Shown here: in pieces, positions 6,673 to 16,444 of the stretch
Layout: each line of letters opens with the position of its first letter
How positions within the stretch are numbered: position 1 is the stretch's first letter
From: Nitrospirales bacterium
Lineage (GTDB): Bacteria; Nitrospirota; Nitrospiria; Nitrospirales; UBA8639
Assembly: GCA_965223295.1 (NCBI GenBank)
Contig: CBDCWC010000002.1
Span: 544,001 to 608,000, forward strand
Length of the DNA: 64,000 nucleotides
Direction of reading: 5' to 3'
Program-made: the position numbers and the translations under genes
The notes under the pieces: generated by a model
What the model saw: only the letters and a program-made list of their open reading frames with translations
Told to the model about the DNA's origin: nothing
The model's database searches: none

Positions 6673-8082
6673 ATGACCCCGAAAGAAGTATTGGATTTTG
6701 CCAAAAAGAACAAGGTAGAAATGGTTGACCTGAAATTTATTGATTTGGTTGGAACATGGCAGCATTTTTCAATACCAACCTCAGAATTATCCTTGGACTT
6801 ATTTAAAGAAGGGTCCGGTTTTGATGGTTCATCAATTCGTGGATGGAAGGCGATTCAAAACAGCGACATGTTGATGGTGCCGGATCCAAATACCGCTCGT
6901 TTGGATCCCTTTACGGAGATTCCCACGCTCAGTATGGTTGGAAATGTTCAAGATCCCATCACCCGTACGATTTATGAACGCGATCCCCGCGGCGTGGCTA
7001 TGCGAGCCGAGCAATATCTTAAGAGCACCAAGATTGGTGATACTTCCTACTGGGGGCCTGAAGCTGAATTTTTTATTTTTGACCATGTGAGTTTTGAACA
7101 AAATAGCCATTCCGGTTATTACTTTGTGGATTCGGAAGAAGGTATTTGGAATTCAGGAAAGGATGGAGAAAATTTGGGGTCTCGACCTCGGCACAAGGAA
7201 GGGTATTTTCCTGTTTCCCCCGTGGATTCCCAGCAAGATATTCGTTCAGAAATGTGCCGAGAAATGGAAAAGGCGGGTATTCGAGTTGAAAAACATCATC
7301 ATGAAGTGGCCACGGCGGGTCAAGGGGAAATTGATCTCCGCTTCGATACGCTCCTCAAAATGGCGGATCAGATGATGATGTATAAATACATTGTCCGCAA
7401 TGTGGCTCGTCGTCATGGGAAAACAGCCACGTTTATGCCGAAACCCGTTTTCGGAGACAATGGCACAGGCATGCATACTCACCAAAGCATTTGGAAAGGA
7501 GGTAAGCCAAATTTTGCTGGAAAAGATTATGCCGGTGTGTCACAACAATGCTTGTATTACATTGGTGGGATTCTCAAGCATGGTCCAGCCTTAGCCGCGT
7601 TAACGAATCCAACAACAAATTCCTATAAACGGTTAGTGCCAGGGTTTGAAGCTCCCGTGATGCTGGCCTATTCCAGCCGTAACCGTTCAGCGGGGATTCG
7701 AATTCCGATGTACTCCCCAAGCCCCAAAGCCAAGCGGATCGAAGTGCGATTCCCCGATCCTTCTTGTAATATGTATTTGGCGTTTAGCGCGATGTTAATG
7801 GCAGGGTTGGATGGCATTCAAAATAAAATTCATCCGGGTGAAGCCATGGATAAGAATCTTTACGATTTAGAGCCTGAAGAATTAGGCAATATTCAAACCT
7901 TGCCGTCGAATTTAGAAGATGCTTTAGATAACCTTGCCAATGACTATGAATTTCTCTTGAAGGGTGGAGTCTTCAGTGAAGATTTAGTTGAGGCGTGGAT
8001 TACCTATAAACGAGACAATGAAGTGGATCCCATGCGTCTCCGTCCGCATCCCCATGAATTCTTCATGTATTACGACGTGTAA
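6673..8082 (+). CDS. glnA: Glutamine synthetase type I
   Basis: [42 protein letters not shown]; adenylylation motif DKNLYDL. Confidence 0.98.
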
Positions 8083-8087
8083 ATTAC

Positions 8088-8172
8088 AGTAAAGAGTGAG
8101 GAGTAAGGGGGTTAGGAGAAATTCTGAGTTCCTTTCTCCTCCTCTGCTTCCTTTCTCCTCTTTATTTCTCAC
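8088..8172. repeat. Purine-rich/pyrimidine-rich imperfect hairpin built from ~7-nt units between convergent glnA and glnE half
   Basis: GTGAGGA GTAAGGG GGTTAGG... followed by TTTCTCCTCC...TTTCTCACT; may act as a terminator. Confidence 0.45.
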
Positions 8173-10424
8173 TGTTGACTTGAGAATCGCCAAAGAAACC
8201 GTTCATGAATCTGCTTCATTCGTGAATGCGTCGTTTTTTCAAACGCTTCCGCACTTTTTTGCCAGTCTCTTGACGTCATGCCCAAACGGCGAGCCAAGAA
8301 TACCATTTCATCAGATCCCGAAGGAGGCAGCACTAAGTCTTTGGCATGTCCCCGCACAATTCGCAAGCCATCAATGAGTTGCCGAAGAAAGATATAGTCA
8401 TCATGTAACGTTTCTCTCTCTGATAATGTGAGAATGGATTCGTGACAAAGTTGTTCAATGGCTTCTAGTGTATTGGGTGTTCGAATTGAAGGATGAGCAT
8501 GGCCATGTATCAGTTGGAGATATTGAACGGTATACTCCACATCGATGAGCCCGCCAGGGCTGTACTTGACATTCGTCGCACCAGGTTGAACTAATTCGGT
8601 TATTTGGCGTTGACGCAGATTGAGCGCAAGACCTAAATCCCACGGGTCTGGCCCATACACGAACTGATTTCTATGGGTTTCAACAGCTTTTCCGACGCGA
8701 GAGTTTCCAGCAATGAAACGAAGCTTGATGAAGGCTTGCCGTTCAAATGGGGCGGCCCCTCCCTGACTGCGATAATACTGTTGAATTTCTTCTACGGTGT
8801 TGGCCAATGTGCCTTTGTCACCATTCGGACGAAGCCGGGTATCGATATGAAAAATACCTTCCTGTTTGGCTTCGATCCATTGCAGAAATTCTTGTGCCCA
8901 TCGTTCAAAAGTATCGGCGGACATTCGAACAATGTTCCGTTTCTCAGTGCGTTGAGGATTGGCGTAGACAAATAAAATTTCAATATCTGACGCATACCCC
9001 AGTTCGCCTCCACCTAATTTCCCTAACCCAAAGATCGCCATGGGAATCGAAGAGGTCCGTGAGGCTTTAGGCTGAATCACTCGATATGATTGTTCGAGTG
9101 CATGATTCAGGATGACATCAGCCAAATTTGTTAAGGCCTGGGAAAAATCGTGAAGAGAACTATTTTCTAAAAGGTGCCGCATATCGATACGAAAAAGTTC
9201 TTCATCTTTCACTTGATTTAAACGCTGCTTTCTTTGCGCAATGGTTTTTGCCGGCAGCAAAGCTTTTTCGAGACTTTTGCTTAAAGTCGTTTTTGAGCGA
9301 ACCAACGATCCTTTTTGATACCGCTGCATCATAGGCAATAGGTTGTCATGCTGACGGCGTAGTAAGTCTTCCCACAGATAGTCGCTGCTTCCAAACAGTT
9401 GAGCCAGGTTTCCCATAGTGGATCCTTTACTCAAAATGGCAAGGGTAGCCCCCTTTTTCGGTTGCTCTAATAATTGATCGAGAAATTGATCAAAATGATC
9501 CAGAGCTTTTCCGGGGTCAGGAGCCCAACTTAAATAATGCGTGAATTCTTTTAATAAGACGGCAGCCGTTCGTAGTTCTTGTTGTTCCTGTTTACGTAAA
9601 ATTCTTCTTCCATGGCGGTCGTGAATGTAGAGACGATTCAAGACTTGTGTGCCTTTGACTTCAATTTTTGCTTTCACCAAGTAAATGCCTCGCATGGCCA
9701 AGGCATTTGCAAATGTATATAAAAAGGCAGGCGTATCAGTTGAGCGAATATCCAAAATAGTATTCGGAGAAGATGCACTGTTCGAAAAGGTAAGATGAAC
9801 GGGATGGAGTAAATCAACGGTTTTTCTTTTTCCTTTTTCCATATGTTCAATGAGTCGGCGGTTAACAGAACGACGAGCCTGGCGTACCTGATTCTTCTGT
9901 AACAAGAGGAGAAGAGAGACCAACATCTGTTGGAAGTCTTGTTGAACAGATCTCTCAAATGGAGAATCTTTTTTCGCTTGGACTTCAAAGACGTCGACTG
10001 CGATTTTCCGAGATAATCGTCCTGATGACCGTCGTACAGGGAGGGATTTCCAGGCCTGCAAGGTTTTTGATCTGTGAATGGGTACAGGTGGTGCGGCAGA
10101 GGTTGGAGTAGAGGTAAAAATGGCTGCCTCTCGTATGTCCAGCCCAAACGAGGCAAGTATGCCGCAGAGAGTGGCAAACTCAGAAAAATAATCGTAGGCG
10201 ACGATGTGAATATGATAGCGCCGCGATGGAAGTGTGTTGATGGTCAACGCACAAGTTTGTTCGAACGTGAGTTGATGGACCATGTTTGCATGTTGGCTTA
10301 TGACCTCAGAAGAAAATTGCTCTAAATAATCTTGGTCCATTTGCGTGATATAGTCTTGGAGAAAAGAGGAGGGTAAATGAGGAGACAGTTGTTCGAGGCG
10401 TTCAATGAGGACAGAGGAATTCAT
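8169..10424 (-). CDS. glnE: GlnE half-protein: two GlnD-like ACT domains plus adenylyltransferase (AT)-type nucleotidyltransferase domain
   Basis: ACT-like IVAYDYFSEFATLCGILASFGLDIREAAIFT and LDIRSTDTPAFLYTFANAL; NT motif GKLGGGELGYASDIE; IDTRLRP, FERQAF and KYSPGGLIDVEY. Confidence 0.85.
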   Translation of the reverse strand: MNSSVLIERLEQLSPHLPSSFLQDYITQMDQDYLEQFSSEVISQHANMVHQLTFEQTCALTINTLPSRRYHIHIVAYDYFSEFATLCGILASFGLDIREAAIFTSTPTSAAPPVPIHRSKTLQAWKSLPVRRSSGRLSRKIAVDVFEVQAKKDSPFERSVQQDFQQMLVSLLLLLQKNQVRQARRSVNRRLIEHMEKGKRKTVDLLHPVHLTFSNSASSPNTILDIRSTDTPAFLYTFANALAMRGIYLVKAKIEVKGTQVLNRLYIHDRHGRRILRKQEQQELRTAAVLLKEFTHYLSWAPDPGKALDHFDQFLDQLLEQPKKGATLAILSKGSTMGNLAQLFGSSDYLWEDLLRRQHDNLLPMMQRYQKGSLVRSKTTLSKSLEKALLPAKTIAQRKQRLNQVKDEELFRIDMRHLLENSSLHDFSQALTNLADVILNHALEQSYRVIQPKASRTSSIPMAIFGLGKLGGGELGYASDIEILFVYANPQRTEKRNIVRMSADTFERWAQEFLQWIEAKQEGIFHIDTRLRPNGDKGTLANTVEEIQQYYRSQGGAAPFERQAFIKLRFIAGNSRVGKAVETHRNQFVYGPDPWDLGLALNLRQRQITELVQPGATNVKYSPGGLIDVEYTVQYLQLIHGHAHPSIRTPNTLEAIEQLCHESILTLSERETLHDDYIFLRQLIDGLRIVRGHAKDLVLPPSGSDEMVFLARRLGMTSRDWQKSAEAFEKTTHSRMKQIHERFLWRFSSQQ

Positions 10425-10493: not shown

Positions 10494-12137
10494 ATGAAAT
10501 CCTCATCGACTCGGCACATCTCAAAACACACCAGTAAAAAGGTAAAAACGCAGGTCATTTTTCCTGATCCAACTCCAATCCTCCTGGCCTCTGATCTTGC
10601 TCCACAAAAGGTCGCACAGTTGCTACAAGCTTTCGGGATTCAGGATTGGAAACGGGCCGATTTGAATCTTCAAGCGATGGCCGGCGAACCGAATACACGC
10701 AAGATCTTAGCAGATTTTCTTCCTTCTCTTTTGGCGACCGTGGCGAAGACCGCTGACCCTGATCAAGCTTTGAATGAATGGGAACGGTATGTGGATTCTG
10801 GCATTCACCGCCTCCAATTGTTTCAGTATTTGATAGCGGTCCCTCATCTTGTTGAGGTGTTAGGGACGGTGTTTGGCAACAGTCAAGCGATGGCACAGAC
10901 GCTCATCCGAGATCCACTCTTAGTGTATTGGATTGAAGATGACCGAGTCTTAGTCCGACGGCAAACACGATCAAATTTGTCAGGGTCGATACAAACGGTA
11001 CTGGCAGGAGTGAAGAGCTTTGAGGGTAAATGCGAAGCCTTGAGACGATTCAAACGACGGGCAATGCTTCGCCTTGGCATTCGTGATCTGCTTGGTATTG
11101 CTACTCCCATTGAAACGTATACAGCACTATCGGATGTAGCCGCAGGGGTGATTCAGGCCGCGTATGAACTTGTGGAGCAAGAGCTCCAGCGGCAGCATGG
11201 GGACTGGGGGGAGCAAACCCCTATGAAAAGGAAAAAACGAATAGGTTTTTCTGTGCTGGCCATGGGAAAACTTGGTGGGTGGGAATTAAATTATAGTTCA
11301 GATGTTGATCTGATTTATGTCTATCAGGCTCCAGAAAGCAATACGAACGCAGGAATAGGGCAGCGGTCTCTCTTAGGTTCAGATTATTTTCATGCTGTAG
11401 CCAGAGAACTGACGAATGTGTTGTCTGCTTCAACGGCCGAGGGAGCTTTGTTTCGAGTAGATATGCGTTTGCGTCCGGAAGGGCAGGTCGGGGCATTAGC
11501 CTGTTCGGTAGAAGATGCCTGTCATTATTATCAAACACGGGGGCGAACTTGGGAACGTTTAGCATTCTTAAAGGCCAAGCCTATTGCAGGGGATATTCGA
11601 ATAGGGCAATCACTCATCCGAAAATTGGGAAAATTTGTGTATGGAGGCCCTGACACCGCTCCTCAGGTCTTCTCAGAGATTCGTGTTCTTCGTTCTCAAA
11701 TGGTGTCCAAAATGACTCGTAAAGGAGAGCTGCAACGCAATGTAAAGTTAGGCACGGGCGGTATTCGGGAAATTGAGTTTATCGTGCAAAGTCTTCAGTT
11801 GCGGTGGGGCTATCGGTATAGCAGTATTCGTGACAGGCAAACGCTCAAAAGTTTATTGAAGTTGGTGAAGGTTGGAAAACTGAAAACGGAGGTCTTTCAG
11901 CAATTGAAGGAGTCTTATATATTTTTGCGAAATCTTGAGACAAAAATTCAAATGGTTCACGAGATTCAAACGCACTTGTTACCTGCGAAAATTGAAGAGA
12001 TCGCTAAATGTGCCATTCGAGTGGGCTACCCCAAAGAAGATAACGTCAAACAGACCGCTGAGCATTTACTGATAGATTACCGTGGGCATACCCTAAGAGT
12101 TCACCAGCTTTACCGACAAATTGTCAAAGCGTCTTAG
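10494..12137 (+). CDS. glnE: GlnE half-protein: adenylyl-removing (AR)-type nucleotidyltransferase domain
   Basis: AMGKLGGWELNYSSDVDLIY, FRVDMRLRPEG, GRTWERLAFLKAKP and NVKLGTGGIREIEF; only one NT domain. Confidence 0.85.
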   Translation: MKSSSTRHISKHTSKKVKTQVIFPDPTPILLASDLAPQKVAQLLQAFGIQDWKRADLNLQAMAGEPNTRKILADFLPSLLATVAKTADPDQALNEWERYVDSGIHRLQLFQYLIAVPHLVEVLGTVFGNSQAMAQTLIRDPLLVYWIEDDRVLVRRQTRSNLSGSIQTVLAGVKSFEGKCEALRRFKRRAMLRLGIRDLLGIATPIETYTALSDVAAGVIQAAYELVEQELQRQHGDWGEQTPMKRKKRIGFSVLAMGKLGGWELNYSSDVDLIYVYQAPESNTNAGIGQRSLLGSDYFHAVARELTNVLSASTAEGALFRVDMRLRPEGQVGALACSVEDACHYYQTRGRTWERLAFLKAKPIAGDIRIGQSLIRKLGKFVYGGPDTAPQVFSEIRVLRSQMVSKMTRKGELQRNVKLGTGGIREIEFIVQSLQLRWGYRYSSIRDRQTLKSLLKLVKVGKLKTEVFQQLKESYIFLRNLETKIQMVHEIQTHLLPAKIEEIAKCAIRVGYPKEDNVKQTAEHLLIDYRGHTLRVHQLYRQIVKAS

Positions 12138-12375
12138 ACCGATTCATTCGCAATTACATATTGGGGTCGTTTTAAGTGCGCTGTACTCAACGACAGCTTT
12201 CGACCTATAGCGGACACAATTAGGAGTAATAAAAGTGCGCCGATCCCGCTGTATTCCGATTGTTCTAGCATCTGTTGCCTCTCGTTTGTGGTTCTTCTCA
12301 TCAGTTGATTTCGCTTTAGAAAGTTCTCATCGTAGCTAATGAACAGCAAATCCTTGAATCTGCCGATGAGGAGGC

Positions 12376-12753
12376 ATGTATTGGAAGGGATATAGCTGGA
12401 GCCTATTGGGTATTCTTAGCGTTCTCATGGCGATTTGCTTCGACCGTTCACCTGAGCATATTTTCACCTGGCTCAACGGGTTAATGGCCTTGCTGTGGAT
12501 CTTTGGACTTTGCGGAATCTTTGCATTTGCTTATGGGATTGAACTATCCACTTCGTCTTTCTGGAAATATATCTTTTGGGGGTTTATGGTCCGTGAGGGT
12601 ATTGTGACGTGGTTATGTTCCACTCCTGATGTGTGGAATACATGGAACACTGGAATATTCTTTGTGGAAACAATCCTGTCGTTAATGATGTTTTTCCCTT
12701 TGTATTTAGCACTGTATAAGATGGCCTACGCGAATGACCACGATGGTCAATAA
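12376..12753 (+). CDS. Orphan small multi-pass membrane protein
   Basis: GAGGAGG RBS; several hydrophobic segments; FWKYIFW and PLYLALYKMAY. Confidence 0.6.
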   Translation: MYWKGYSWSLLGILSVLMAICFDRSPEHIFTWLNGLMALLWIFGLCGIFAFAYGIELSTSSFWKYIFWGFMVREGIVTWLCSTPDVWNTWNTGIFFVETILSLMMFFPLYLALYKMAYANDHDGQ

Positions 12754-12774
12754 TCCGAAGAATGATAGTGTGGA

Positions 12775-13014
12775 ATGTGTGGAGCCACTGGGGTGAGGAA
12801 GCGCAGCATTAACATCCCATTGTTAGCCTTCAGTCTCCTTATGATTGGAGCTGATATTTATGCCGTGAACATCGAAGAGTTGACGCTTTACTCCAGTAGA
12901 CCCTATGCCACCCAATGGTGGACGATTGCCAATCCTTATAAAGACATATTGGGATGGATCTTGCTCTTAGTAGGTAGCTATTTTTGCTATCGTTCAGTAT
13001 ATAAAATTAACTAA
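12775..13014 (+). CDS. Orphan small membrane protein (2 TM)
   Basis: Two hydrophobic segments; start uncertain. Confidence 0.4.
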   Translation: MCGATGVRKRSINIPLLAFSLLMIGADIYAVNIEELTLYSSRPYATQWWTIANPYKDILGWILLLVGSYFCYRSVYKIN

Positions 13015-13234
13015 GGGTATTGGGGCAATATGTCTACCGTTCCACCGAAGGCATTCTGCGCAATGAGATTACAAAATTACGCGCGAAGCTCGAAAGTGCG
13101 AATGTGAATAGCAATATGCTTACCATGGAAGTGAAGCCTTAAAGGGGAGTAAGCCGTCTACTCAACATTTTCGAGACTTCCCCTTTCGATCCAAAGAGTG
13201 ACTTTCACATGGGAGTTCGATTTGCGAATATAGT

Positions 13235-13495
13235 GTGATGAGGCTTCGCGGAAAAATCGAAATCGTTGCCGCTGTCGGTTTGTTGCTCGTAGCTCTCGAC
13301 GGATATCTATGGGTCATTTCGTCGTCTCACTTAGCACACCAATTCTGCCAGGGTGATTTTTCATTGTTTCATGAGCACTTTCGCTGCCGACAGCCTTACC
13401 TCGGGCTGGTACTGAGTATTGCTGCATGTCTACCATCCTTCGTGCTGTTCGTAATTGGCTGGCGACATTTGAAGTTGGCGAGAAGAAACGGATGA
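13235..13495 (+). CDS. Orphan small membrane protein (2 TM, Cys pair in loop)
   Basis: TM-(HQFC...HFRCRQP)-TM; flanked on both sides by the ~29-bp motif. Confidence 0.55.
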   Translation: MMRLRGKIEIVAAVGLLLVALDGYLWVISSSHLAHQFCQGDFSLFHEHFRCRQPYLGLVLSIAACLPSFVLFVIGWRHLKLARRNG

Positions 13496-13716
13496 ATGAC
13501 TACTTCTGGTCGATGCCGGACATTTGGACTGCACCAAAAGGTTCCCTTTTATATTCTCGGTTTTAACCCAACCCTCACTTTCTGGCCGAGCATTAGCTGC
13601 CTTTTCCTCATCGTTGAGCCCAATGAACGTCCTTCCAATTTCCGTCCGACCAATCCTCTGCTGGAAGATTTTGAATATTTGTGTTTGATCATATAGGTAA
13701 AAATTTTAAACAAGGA

Positions 13717-13744
13717 CTTGAAATCTATAAAAAAATGGTTATCT
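13717..13744 (+). promoter_or_regulatory. Putative RpoH-type promoter of clpB
   Basis: CTTG-N17-GTTATCT; same architecture as the site upstream of groES. Confidence 0.6.
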
Positions 13745-13843
13745 CGGTGGTAGATCATAAGAAGGGAAGATTGAGATGTCCATCGAGTGATTGAAGAAGT
13801 TTTGTGAATAAAAAAAGACGAAAATAAAGAAAGAGGTGCTCCA

Positions 13844-16444
13844 ATGAATCCTAATGAAATGACGATAAAGCTCCAAGAAGCCTTACAAACCGCCTCGGGG
13901 TTGGCGATGCGGCGGAATCATCAGGGCATCGACGTTGAACATTTGTTGGTTGCCTTATTGGAGCAAGCTGATGGTTCGACCATACCGATTCTTGAGCAGG
14001 CAGGAGTCTCTCCAAAATCTGTCGGTAATGCAGCAGAACAAGCCCTTCAAAAAATTCCTCAAGTTCAGGTCAGTGGCTCGGCGCCTGGTCAAGTCCATTT
14101 GACGCCCAGACTCGGCAACGTTTTGAGCCAGGCCGAAAAAGAAATGAAGGAGCTTAAAGATGAATACCTCAGCGTAGAACACATCTTGTTGGCTATGGTT
14201 GAAGAAGGCGGTGTATTTAAAGCCTTAGGGCTCAAGCGGGAAAAACTATTAGCGGGTCTTCAGCATGTGCGAGGCAATCAACGCGTAACAAGTCAAGACC
14301 CTGAAGGCACCTACCAATCTTTAGAGAAGTATGGACGAGATCTTACGCGATTGGCCAGTCAAGGGAAGTTGGATCCTGTCATTGGCCGTGATGAAGAAAT
14401 TCGTCGAGTGATTCAAATCTTGTCCCGGCGTACCAAGAATAATCCAGTCTTAATCGGTGAACCTGGCGTAGGGAAGACGGCGATTGTTGAAGGTTTGGCC
14501 CAGCGAATTATCAAAGGTGATGTTCCTGAGGGCCTGAAACAAAAACGTGTCGTGGTCTTGGATATGGGAGCTTTGGTAGCAGGTGCAAAGTTTCGAGGAG
14601 AATTTGAAGAACGTTTGAAAGCCGTGCTGAAGGAAGTGCAAGCTTCGCAAGGCCAAGTGTTACTCTTTATTGATGAATTGCATACCGTGGTCGGAGCTGG
14701 TGCAGCGGAAGGAGCCATGGATGCTGCTAACCTTTTAAAGCCCATGCTCGCTCGTGGCGAAATGCATTTAATTGGGGCGACTACTTTAGATGAATACCGT
14801 AAGCATATTGAAAAAGACGCGGCGTTGGAGCGGAGGTTTCAGCCGGTTGTGGTCGATCAACCTTCGGTAGAAGACACCATTTCAATTTTACGGGGCTTGA
14901 GAGAGCGCTATGAAGTGCATCACGGGGTACGTATCAAGGATTCGGCGTTGGTCGCCGCGGCCAGGTTGTCTCATCGATATATCAGTGACCGATTTTTGCC
15001 AGATAAGGCCATCGATTTGATTGATGAATCGGCGGCTCGATTAAGAACGGAGATCGATAGCATGCCAGCTGAGATGGATGAGATCTCCCGAAAAGTGTTG
15101 CAGCTAGAAATTGAACGAGAAGCCTTAAAAAAGGAAACAGATTCTGGAAGCCAGACGCGTTTAGCGAATTTAGAACAAGAACTCGATAGTAAACAACAGA
15201 CCTTGGCTGACCTGAAGGCTCAATGGGATGCTGAGAAATCTTCAGTCGGCAAACTACAAGAGTTGCGGCAGTCCATTGAAGAAATAAAGCAGAGCATTGA
15301 ACAGGCTGAACGAAACTATGACCTCAACAAAGTAGCAGAATTGCGGTATGGAGAATTGCCGCGTTTAGAAAAGGAAATGCAGGAAGAGGAAGAGCGCCTG
15401 ACCAATAAAAATCAGGAAAATCGCTTGTTGAAAGAGGAAGTCGACGAAGAAGATATTGCCGAAGTCGTGAGTCGTTGGACAGGTATTCCGATGAATCGTC
15501 TGATGCAGGGGGAGATAGAAAAGCTCCTTCATTTAGACGACCATTTACATCAACGTGTCGTAGGTCAAGACGAAGCCGTCCGAGCTGTGGCGGATGCCGT
15601 ATTACGCGCCAGATCTGGCATAAAAGACCCGAATCGCCCCATTGGCTCCTTTTTATTCCTAGGTCCGACTGGAGTAGGGAAGACGGAGTTGGCGCGTTCG
15701 CTTGCCCATACACTTTTTGATGATGAATCTAATTTGGTGCGGATCGACATGTCCGAATATATGGAAAAACATACGGTGGCCAGATTGATCGGCGCACCTC
15801 CAGGGTATGTGGGCTATGAAGAAGGCGGCCAGTTGACCGAAGCCGTTCGACGGAAACCCTTCTCAGTCATTTTGTTTGATGAAATCGAGAAAGCGCATAA
15901 TGATGTATTTAATGTGCTACTTCAAGTTTTGGATGATGGGCGTTTGACAGATTCTCAAGGACGAACAGTGGACTTTAAAAATACCGTGCTCATCATGACA
16001 TCTAATTTAGGCAGTCAAGAGATTTTGGAAGCGCAGCAGCGTGATATGGATTATGAAGGAATCCGCGCAGTGGTGCTTCGAGAAATCCAACAACATTTCC
16101 GCCCGGAATTCTTAAATCGAGTTGACGAAGTCGTCGTCTTCCATCCCTTGACACAGAAAGAGTTGGGACCAATCGTAGAAATTCAATTAGAGCGATTACG
16201 ATCTCGTTTGGCAGATCGGCAGATGACCTTAGAGCTGACTCCGGCAGCGGTCGCAGAATTGGCCGAGCGAGGATATGACTCGGTCTATGGTGCCAGACCC
16301 TTGAAACGGTTGATCCAACAGGAGATCGAGACGCCCCTGTCGCGCCTGATTATTCAAGGCAAAGTTGTGGATGGTCAAACCATCATAGGCGATCTCATCG
16401 ATAGCAAGTTTGTGCTGCACGCCAAAGAGACCACTGAAACATAA
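13844..16444 (+). CDS. clpB: ATP-dependent chaperone ClpB
   Basis: Two AAA+ modules ([16 protein letters not shown]), coiled-coil middle domain, [12 protein letters not shown]; 866 aa. Confidence 0.98.

Follow-up and report, generated by a model that had tools for sequence, protein, structure and literature searches.

A 28-nucleotide palindromic junction site around a mosaic of small genes between glnE and clpB in a Nitrospirales genome

Introduction

Three small open reading frames (ORFs) lie between a glnE-family gene and clpB in the genome of a Nitrospirales bacterium (GTDB lineage Bacteria; Nitrospirota; Nitrospiria; Nitrospirales; UBA8639; NCBI GenBank assembly GCA_965223295.1). The window, as the whole stretch of DNA analysed here is called, comprises 64,000 nucleotides (nt) of contig CBDCWC010000002.1 (positions 544,001 to 608,000, forward strand), and positions given without a contig are counted from its first letter. 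An initial annotation had described the interval as a decayed gene-capture array, its ORF boundaries carrying six copies of a degenerate motif of about 29 bp, distinct from the attC sites of integrons and served in trans by an enzyme for which a tyrosine recombinase or HUH/IS91-like enzymes were candidates. Integrons and the dif modules of Acinetobacter are the established routes by which single genes are stacked and swapped at short sites. The locus raises three questions: whether the ORFs were acquired, what marks the edges of the acquired DNA, and which agent could have joined the pieces.

The interval does consist of acquired DNA with separable gene units, and its boundaries are marked by short sites other than attC, as first proposed. 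The site is a 28-nt palindrome that serves both as a mosaic junction and as a target of insertion sequences (ISs), and that separates modules of one to three genes in relatives and in many phyla. The locus is probably a 1.3-kb mosaic of two or three acquired units lying inside such a junction site, which an agent acting in trans would have cut and rejoined.

A palindromic site at the edges of the insert

Each of the five strings quoted for the 29-nt motif occurs once, at 12189, 12733, 13029, 13176 and 13495. The first and last copies do match at 18 of 29 positions, which is the level of chance. All 200 dinucleotide shuffles of 12160-13524 contain a best same-strand pair of 29-mers of at least 18/29, pairs at that level average 32.1 in the shuffles against 25 in the real sequence, and the best pair is 18-21 in 21 of 21 other 1365-nt chunks of the window. 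A repeat search of the window did not recover the six copies as a family, and a family of this kind is ruled out by the shuffles together with the position weight matrix (PWM) scores given below.

The junction site was defined through a relative, G018, in which a direct repeat, 13/14 in its core, stands on both sides of the counterpart of the ORF1-ORF2 block (G000 denotes the genome of the window, other G-numbers the compared genomes and X-numbers public sequencing runs). It is a 28-nt imperfect palindrome of 11-6-11 geometry with the consensus ATGTCCGCTTT CGGCCA AAAGCGGACAT. The reverse complement of the G018 core, CGGCCARAAGCGGACA, has 108 matches at no more than one mismatch in the DNA of 50 genus genomes, against 16 for the reversed control; some of the matches are conserved coding look-alikes and were discarded. 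A 28-nt PWM built only from 50 sites of relatives, and independent of the window, was scored over 7,569,514 genome positions. Copy 1 scores 21.3 on the plus strand and ranks 5th; copy 6 scores 19.9 on the minus strand, against 0.9 on the plus strand, and ranks 6th; for each, about 0.002 such matches are expected per 1.7 kb. An independent nhmmer profile made from the relatives' loci only places the same two sites (13528-13503, minus; 12190-12217, plus) 13th and 14th genome-wide, with E values of 0.019 for copy 1 and 0.02 for copy 6 in a 17-kb search.

Copy 5, with a score of −2.6 and about one such match expected per 1.7 kb, is not significant by itself. It can be aligned with the good site that closes the G018 block on the right, and is a real site by homology and breakpoint evidence only. 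Copies 2, 3 and 4 score −19, −6 to −11 and −17 to −21, all of it noise. Of the six copies first described, three are therefore retained: copies 1 and 6 are the outer junctions of the insert and copy 5 is a decayed internal junction.

Since copy 6 reads as a site on the minus strand, by its spacer and by the scores of 19.9 and 0.9, the two outer sites are inverted with respect to one another, contrary to the single orientation first given for all copies. Their better-conserved arms point into the insert; the outer arm of each site belongs to the host side and the inner arm to the insert side. The two ORF-less units of 147-150 bp that were also described find no support. Left-arm substitutions are mostly uncompensated, and G-T versus A-C mismatches favour no consistent strand. 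A stretch at 13572-13599, outside the insert in DNA common with a contig of run X5, has a perfect CGGCCA spacer on the minus strand with poor arms (PWM −11) and may be a further, fully decayed site.

The reading that nothing is present here beyond chance motif copies and spurious ORFs has next to no probability. The 18/29 match and copies 2-4 do lie at chance level, but the PWM ranks of 5 and 6, the purifying selection on ORF1 and ORF3 and a strain polymorphism located exactly at the sites refute it for copies 1 and 6 and for these two ORFs.

Allelic forms of the glnE-clpB interval

The genes glnE and clpB are neighbours in the genus. The gap between them measures 138-331 nt, with no site at E≤50, in 18 of 18 relatives, and 1706 nt in the window. 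Other gaps are those of G065 (564 nt), G059 (1433 nt) and G064 (9071 nt), and the window insert has no similarity to the gaps of G064, G059, G065, G016 or G063. The comparison across relatives and strains that had been proposed as a check accordingly finds a variable interval with an unshared insert, and sister forms that lack the three ORFs.

These sister forms come from contigs assembled from public runs, which may include the source sample; the contigs attest the presence of a form, not its frequency. No RNA data set was listed among the runs holding the stretch. Contigs of run X1 carry the window form at 12176-13244, 13357-13556 and 13527-13728 with zero differences. A diverged X1 contig fits the window up to 12202 and continues as GTCCAGGCTGTGTGAAAACTC…, and on the right …GAGTTTTCACACAGCCTGGAC is followed by a fit from 13511. 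The two sequences are the inverted ends of an IS1182/IS5-like element (DUF772 + DDE_Tnp_1) known from G014 and G000. Run X5, from another study, has the same IS end after 12205, and its fit resumes at 13518 after unlike DNA. Because the IS ends lie at 12202/12205 and 13511/13518, the sister strains carry the IS in place of ORF1-3: copy 1 outer arm, IS, copy 6 outer arm. Run X3 contributes a contig that fits only from 13186, at the arm/spacer edge of copy 5, with unlike DNA before it, and a fit from 13504, also preceded by unlike DNA. The breaks at 12202, 13186, 13504 and 13511 all fall inside copies 1, 5 and 6, and the locus is polymorphic exactly at the site. One X1 contig of depth 2 joins 12216 to 13504, and run X7 holds just a 211-nt piece of ORF2.

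Two of the other long gaps have contents of their own. The gap of G065 (L056) contains a copy of an unrelated high-copy repeat (…GCCGCTGGCGGCTTTTTTCAACAGACCC…) with about 50 copies in G000. G064, which judged by glnE is the closest relative, has a 9-kb insert (in L055, C1:425000-438000) with genes for CheR and two large hybrid histidine kinases and without a junction site.

The three ORFs and a relic of an SRAP gene

The ORFs are, as first annotated, three co-oriented orphans with hydrophobic segments (Table 1), none with a Pfam match. Their families are small: among 5.8 billion proteins ORF1 has seven clusters, ORF3 four and ORF2, queried with its G052 form, three, none of them named. Their products are predicted to be lineage-restricted small membrane proteins. 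ORF1 is identical to its G018 counterpart at 74 of 125 residues, with a ratio of nonsynonymous to synonymous substitution rates (dN/dS) of 0.14 and saturated dS, and ORF3 is identical to its G009 counterpart at 63 of 81 residues, with a dN/dS of 0.19; both ORFs are under purifying selection and look functional. ORF2 may be decaying, with relaxed copies in G000 and G018. Its dN/dS is 0.18-0.22 against G052 and up to 0.5 with G014 included, and the comparison with G018 counts 2 synonymous and 14 nonsynonymous changes as well as a 1-nt indel, the G018 ORF starting inside the relic described below.

The units recur in different company. The ORF1-ORF2 block of G018 lies between two sites (E 1e-6 and 7e-7) in another neighbourhood, with FG-GAP and AAA_13 genes. 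ORF2 occurs without ORF1 in G014 and G052, and ORF3 occurs alone in G009 (C1:2263603-2263851), where the 82% nucleotide identity covers the ORF only and not its flanks.

At the boundary of ORF1 and ORF2 the 3' end of an SRAP gene (PF02586) survives as a relic, which underlies copy 3 of the motif first described. It is 87-96% identical over 21-39 nt to SRAP 3' ends of G000 (C3:1692766, C2:875242) and of four relatives; the G000 SRAP paralogue is confirmed by a Pfam SRAP match. The same relic stands 5' of ORF2 in G018 and in G052, where the gene upstream of ORF2 is an isochorismatase and SRAP persists only as a relic of about 30 codons. Both SRAP paralogues of G000 have a site or half-site within about 30 nt on their 3' side. 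The relic before ORF2 thus records an imprecise capture beside such a site.

The paralogues themselves lie in two islands of G000 (C2:856000-880000 and C3:1680000-1697000). Each island contains a split SRAP paralogue followed by a junction site or half-site, with a tyrosine integrase of about 400 aa (amino acids) 8-14 kb away, and the two have several rearranged segments in common, including an IS3-like element.

The site in relatives

Sites in the genus cluster in variable regions, where they separate modules of one to three genes. The modules encode Lcl_C, PEP-CTERM, GNAT, SIR2_2, AAA_13, cytochrome c and glycosyltransferase proteins, or consist of ISs, and arrays of them occur in G018, G014, G059 and G024. 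Sites lie just 3' of stop codons, and many are inverted doublets of a CGACCC-type and a CGGCCA-type unit. Among the 1225 pairs of 50 sites, 12 share the upstream flank only, 3 the downstream flank only and none both (200 nt, local score ≥45, background maximum 25). In these one-sided pairs the left arm follows the upstream DNA, and the right arm follows the downstream DNA in its last 1-2 bases. Homology between genomes, as judged from these flanks, breaks off at the site. An empty allele of the G018 island was sought in the 50 genus genomes, none of which conserves the island flanks.

Three IS families are found in the spacer. One is an IS1182/IS5-like element, for which G000 (C3:870632-872262) and copy B of G014 show the central dinucleotide duplicated (2 bp); IS30-like elements (HTH_38 + rve) occupy the spacer in G014, G059, G052 and a Pseudomonas; and an IS3-like element lies beside the SRAP paralogue of G000.

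Three short sequences in the G018 island (L005:8696-8764, 9274-9396 and 9934-10039; about 68, 122 and 105 nt) are found again in many genomes of the genus, and some have several copies per genome. An Rfam search of three site-rich loci gave nothing but an unrelated c-di-GMP-I riboswitch (RF01051, 46.7 bits), which lies beside small ORFs in the G059 island (L053:1709-1793).

Distribution beyond the order

Exact cores are overall not above control in a sample of 401 genomes of the phylum, in which true palindromic sites are present in a sister family and, within the family itself, in two other genera. A scan for TTCGGCCARAAGCGGACAT in one genome per species (185,579 species) gave at least 124 stretches, against about 9 expected by chance as estimated at equal base frequencies. 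Among the matches listed are Gamma-, Beta-, Alpha- and Zetaproteobacteria, Nitrospinota, Planctomycetota, Terriglobia, Gemmatimonadales and Bacteroidetes. The cross-phylum matches keep the whole 28-mer including the spacer and differ in both flanks, and many lie at contig ends. A 6.8-kb contig of G457, a gammaproteobacterial metagenome-assembled genome (MAG), has at least 10 sites in one orientation with single genes between them, encoding an amidohydrolase, ChaN, DUF3185 and an alpha/beta hydrolase. Units of one gene between inverted sites are found in Pseudomonas (L242) and on a Nitrospinaceae chromosome (L244).

The plasmid collection, searched with a 71-nt doublet, returned one match at chance level and the phage collection none. 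None of the 8.1 million PubMed Central (PMC) papers and 0.36 million preprints searched contains any of four 14-mers taken from the site, and the literature on Nitrospira repetitive extragenic palindromic (REP) sequences, or on integron gene cassettes, gave nothing about this site. Many 28-mers of the G457 arrays (L240, L241) have the motif TATTAACNGTTAAC 2-3 nt away, on the side of the neighbouring gene's start; a related sequence, GGTAACCGAC, stands next to the site in Nitrospirales doublets.

The units might alternatively be non-autonomous and transposon-like, their inner half-sites (…CCARAAGCGGACAT) being terminal inverted repeats used by a DDE transposase in trans and the sites being abutted ends. 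Inverted sites with conserved arms toward the cargo do enclose the window block, the L242 and L244 units and a cytochrome c unit of G059 (L053), doublets form where one unit adjoins the next, the central dinucleotide is also the point of entry of ISs, and an IS30-family transposase gene stands beside the site in three distant genomes. IS30 prefers palindromic hot spots and end-to-end junctions. All sites are direct, however, in the arrays G457:C59 and G024:C241, and no transposase with matching ends was found, the ends of the IS30-like and IS1182-like elements being unrelated to the site. Site pairs examined for a transposon or a miniature inverted-repeat transposable element enclose no transposase save that of ISs with unrelated ends of their own, and no target duplication was seen around the window block. 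We consider this origin improbable.

Comparison with known systems

Integron arrays, including clusters of attC sites lacking integron-integrases (CALINs), are among the closest known systems. In them too, most units are single accessory genes poor in promoters, with a short imperfect palindrome after each; their cassettes are shuffled among genomes, and arrays can lie far from any integrase. If the sites were attC and the array a CALIN, an integron integrase would be the agent. Four cross-phylum matches place the 28-mer 10-25 nt upstream of what we take to be an aadA-type attC. According to PMC9024848, IntegronFinder 2.0 finds two CALINs in Candidatus Nitrospira inopinata. Yet the site has 28 nt in 11-6-11 geometry and lacks RYYYAAC/GTTRRRY (R''/R') boxes. 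It occurs in both orientations and in doublets, and its sequence, not its fold alone, is conserved across phyla. The interval holds a sole attC-box pair (13565-13618), without an extended inverted repeat, and shuffles average 0.36 pairs. No protein passes the cut-off of the integron integrase model TIGR02249 in any of the 50 genus genomes or of 5 distant carriers, and only Xer-like partial matches appear; an attC array is very improbable.

The dif modules of Acinetobacter (PMC6449649, PMC13141974, PMC10132070) also have 28-nt 11-6-11 sites, the pdif (XerC/XerD) sites, that bound small accessory modules, occurring in inverted orientation around them and with one arm better conserved; a housekeeping enzyme encoded elsewhere serves them, and dedicated ISs insert beside the sites. 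The present site shares the geometry, but its arms (ATGTCCGCTTT/AAAGCGGACAT) are unlike the dif consensus (…ATAA N6 TTATG…) and unlike the genome's own dif candidate, AATGTCGCATAATAAATATTATGTCAAAT, at G000:C2:633717-633745. It is moreover chromosomal, found in many phyla, and arranged in doublets rather than as one shared site between modules. The distance from the dif candidate to the point where the cumulative GC skew of contig C2 reaches its maximum is 1.8 kb, and the candidate lies about 26 kb past the end of the window; because it adjoins that maximum, the window is some 30-90 kb from the likely terminus.

REP sequences and the bacterial interspersed mosaic elements (BIMEs) built from them, with the REP-associated tyrosine transposases (RAYTs) that accompany them, are likewise short extragenic imperfect palindromes 3' of genes, with doublets alternating in orientation and type and several IS families using them as targets (PMC2817692, PMC1525189). 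This likeness is the basis of a passive alternative, in which no cassette enzyme exists and a REP/BIME-like palindrome, as a hairpin or cruciform hot spot, lets IS insertion and illegitimate recombination pile up boundaries. Insertion of IS type at a palindromic hot spot explains much of the data for which a site-specific recombinase had been proposed: three unrelated IS families enter at the centre, as documented for REPs in PMC1525189; the inverted CGGCCA/CGACCC doublets, themselves used as IS targets, resemble the alternating REPs of BIMEs (PMC2817692); sites lie just 3' of stop codons; no recombinase is co-localised; and the SRAP relic marks an imprecise capture. Copy number speaks against it, with two exact cores in G000, 0-8 per genus genome and 2-10 copies of the site per genome, compared with >100 for REPs (PMC2817692); even the 108 matches in 50 genomes include coding look-alikes. 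The spacer and arms are identical in unrelated phyla while the flanks differ, which is hard to explain without sequence-specific recognition; the site is confined to variable regions; and the mostly uncompensated left-arm changes leave a hairpin not clearly selected. Nor is a RAYT flanked by the site: no site at E<1 occurs in the 66 kb around 17 Y1_Tnp loci, or within about 3 kb of any of them, a result that also speaks against the HUH enzymes first named as candidates, IS91-type enzymes not having been searched for. We regard the passive alternative as unlikely.

G000 has a RAYT-like Y1 transposase gene (C3:407786-408470, region 407700-408540) whose flanking palindromes are of another kind, the GGGGTCAGACTCGA type, of which the genome has 57 copies; gene and palindromes form a conventional REP/RAYT pair that has nothing to do with the junction site.

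The sfx sites of R64-type shufflons have an asymmetric core, with conservation of the spacer and of one arm but no constraint on the other, and they occur in both orientations within a region. Shufflons invert segments of one gene beside the recombinase gene rci. The junction site resembles sfx in its conserved spacer and single conserved arm and in its two orientations within one region; it differs in bounding whole genes and in having no adjacent recombinase.

Two further enzyme candidates were rejected. A serine recombinase was prompted by the outer arms, which we take to be TGTCYNNT-like, and by the central 2-bp duplications around ISs; PF00239 has no match in G000, G453 or G457, and elsewhere none near a site. 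A small tyrosine recombinase was suggested by a match of 167 aa (C2:760489-760989), which is the C-terminal part of an integrase next to a fragment of a transposase.

Features of the locus

Two separate, divergent GlnE-family genes follow glnA on its 3' side, each with one GlnE and one GlnD_UR_UTase domain in Pfam, in place of a single two-domain glnE; the longer protein has a weak ACT-like match. The conserved element upstream of clpB, a putative heat-shock-type promoter, also occurs in the short glnE-clpB gaps of relatives, and G016 can be aligned from window position 13700 onward. An Rfam scan of the interval at E≤1 returned nothing except a chance match to a snoRNA model, and a simple promoter and terminator scan gave counts at or under the shuffle level.

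Table 1. Coordinates of features in and around the glnE-clpB interval of the window
Feature	Position	Strand	Description
glnA	6673-8082		
GlnE-family gene	8169-10424	-	751 aa
GlnE-family gene	10494-12137	+	547 aa
Junction site, copy 1	12190-12217	+	Outer arm ACGACAGCTTT 12190-12200, spacer CGACCT 12201-12206, inner arm ATAGCGGACAC 12207-12217
Inserted block (cassettes)	12203-13510		Strain-specific; missing from sister-strain contigs, which have an IS here
ORF1+ORF2 block	12295-13186	+	77% identity over 930 aligned columns to G018:C41:142502-143425
ORF1	12376-12753	+	125 aa, 2 hydrophobic segments (Kyte-Doolittle, 19-residue windows ≥1.6, here and below), orphan family
SRAP (PF02586) 3'-end relic	12735-12790	+	…TMVNNPKNDSVECVEPLG*; overlaps ORF1 stop and ORF2 start
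ORF2	12775-13014	+	79 aa, 1 hydrophobic segment; start uncertain
Junction site, copy 5, decayed	13176-13203		ACTTCCCCTTT CGATCC AAAGAGTGACT; between ORF1-ORF2 unit and ORF3 unit
ORF3	13235-13495	+	86 aa, 2 hydrophobic segments, orphan family
Junction site, copy 6	13496-13523	-	Minus-strand read: outer arm ATGTCCGGCAT, spacer CGACCA, inner arm GAAGTAGTCAT
Conserved clpB upstream element	13713-13750	+	CTTGAA, about 15 nt, GGTTATCT; outside insert
clpB	13844-16444		

How the mosaic may have formed

The favoured explanation, a mosaic built inside a junction site that is cut and rejoined in trans, would take ORF1, the SRAP relic and ORF2 as one acquired part and ORF3 as the next, all placed in the middle of one 28-nt palindrome. 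Gaining, losing or shuffling a module would involve a cut and a new joint in the spacer. The responsible agent would have its gene elsewhere and could be a site-specific recombinase or a transposase that recognises the palindrome, and the array in the window would be a partly decayed product of such events rather than an active integron. An enzyme acting at the spacer is ranked above a passive hot spot because sequence and spacer are conserved across phyla, copy number is low and the sites are confined to variable DNA.

Several observations weigh against this explanation. Copies 1 and 6 are inverted, and direct repeats would be expected had a tyrosine or serine recombinase simply integrated a circle. 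The SRAP relic in the ORF2 unit shows at least one imprecise capture. The ORF3 homologue of G009 has no site within 1.5 kb. No recombinase gene was found in or beside the arrays examined, so that the co-occurring enzyme first envisaged did not emerge, and G000 has no serine recombinase of the PF00239 family. A Pfam search of G041, a complete genome with intact sites, gave only two full-length tyrosine recombinases, both Xer-like, which makes a role for Xer suggestive only, and one serine-recombinase match with an in-frame stop. The sister-strain forms are assembled contigs that may stem from the source sample; the apparent joint of 12216 to 13504 is a single contig of depth 2; and the dinucleotides next to the IS in X1, GT to its left and AC to its right, do not form a direct duplication but are each other's reverse complement, which may reflect two contigs from different strains or an inversion. 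The contrast between a conserved and a variable arm is partly a search artefact, yet 47 right-arm against 31 left-arm matches in the same 276 kb argue that it is real.

A bolder proposal, which we consider possible rather than likely, is that the 28-mer is the recombination site of a pan-bacterial, integrase-free cassette system with its enzyme in trans, and that the glnE-clpB interval is a live dock. An Xer-type housekeeping enzyme or an unrecognised one would use the 11-6-11 sites to capture single genes, stack them and exchange them, and cassette-bearing, IS-bearing and near-empty alleles would coexist in one sample.

Beside attC and dif sites, the palindrome represents a third kind of site: 28 nt long, conserved in sequence across many phyla and, by the tests run, neither attC nor dif-like nor linked to a RAYT. 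Should an enzyme belong to it, a widespread route of gene exchange has been overlooked; if none does, it offers a clear case of a palindrome that alone channels IS insertion and mosaic evolution. Either way the site provides a concrete marker for hot spots of accessory genes, and at least one carrier, a Pseudomonas isolate, is cultivable.

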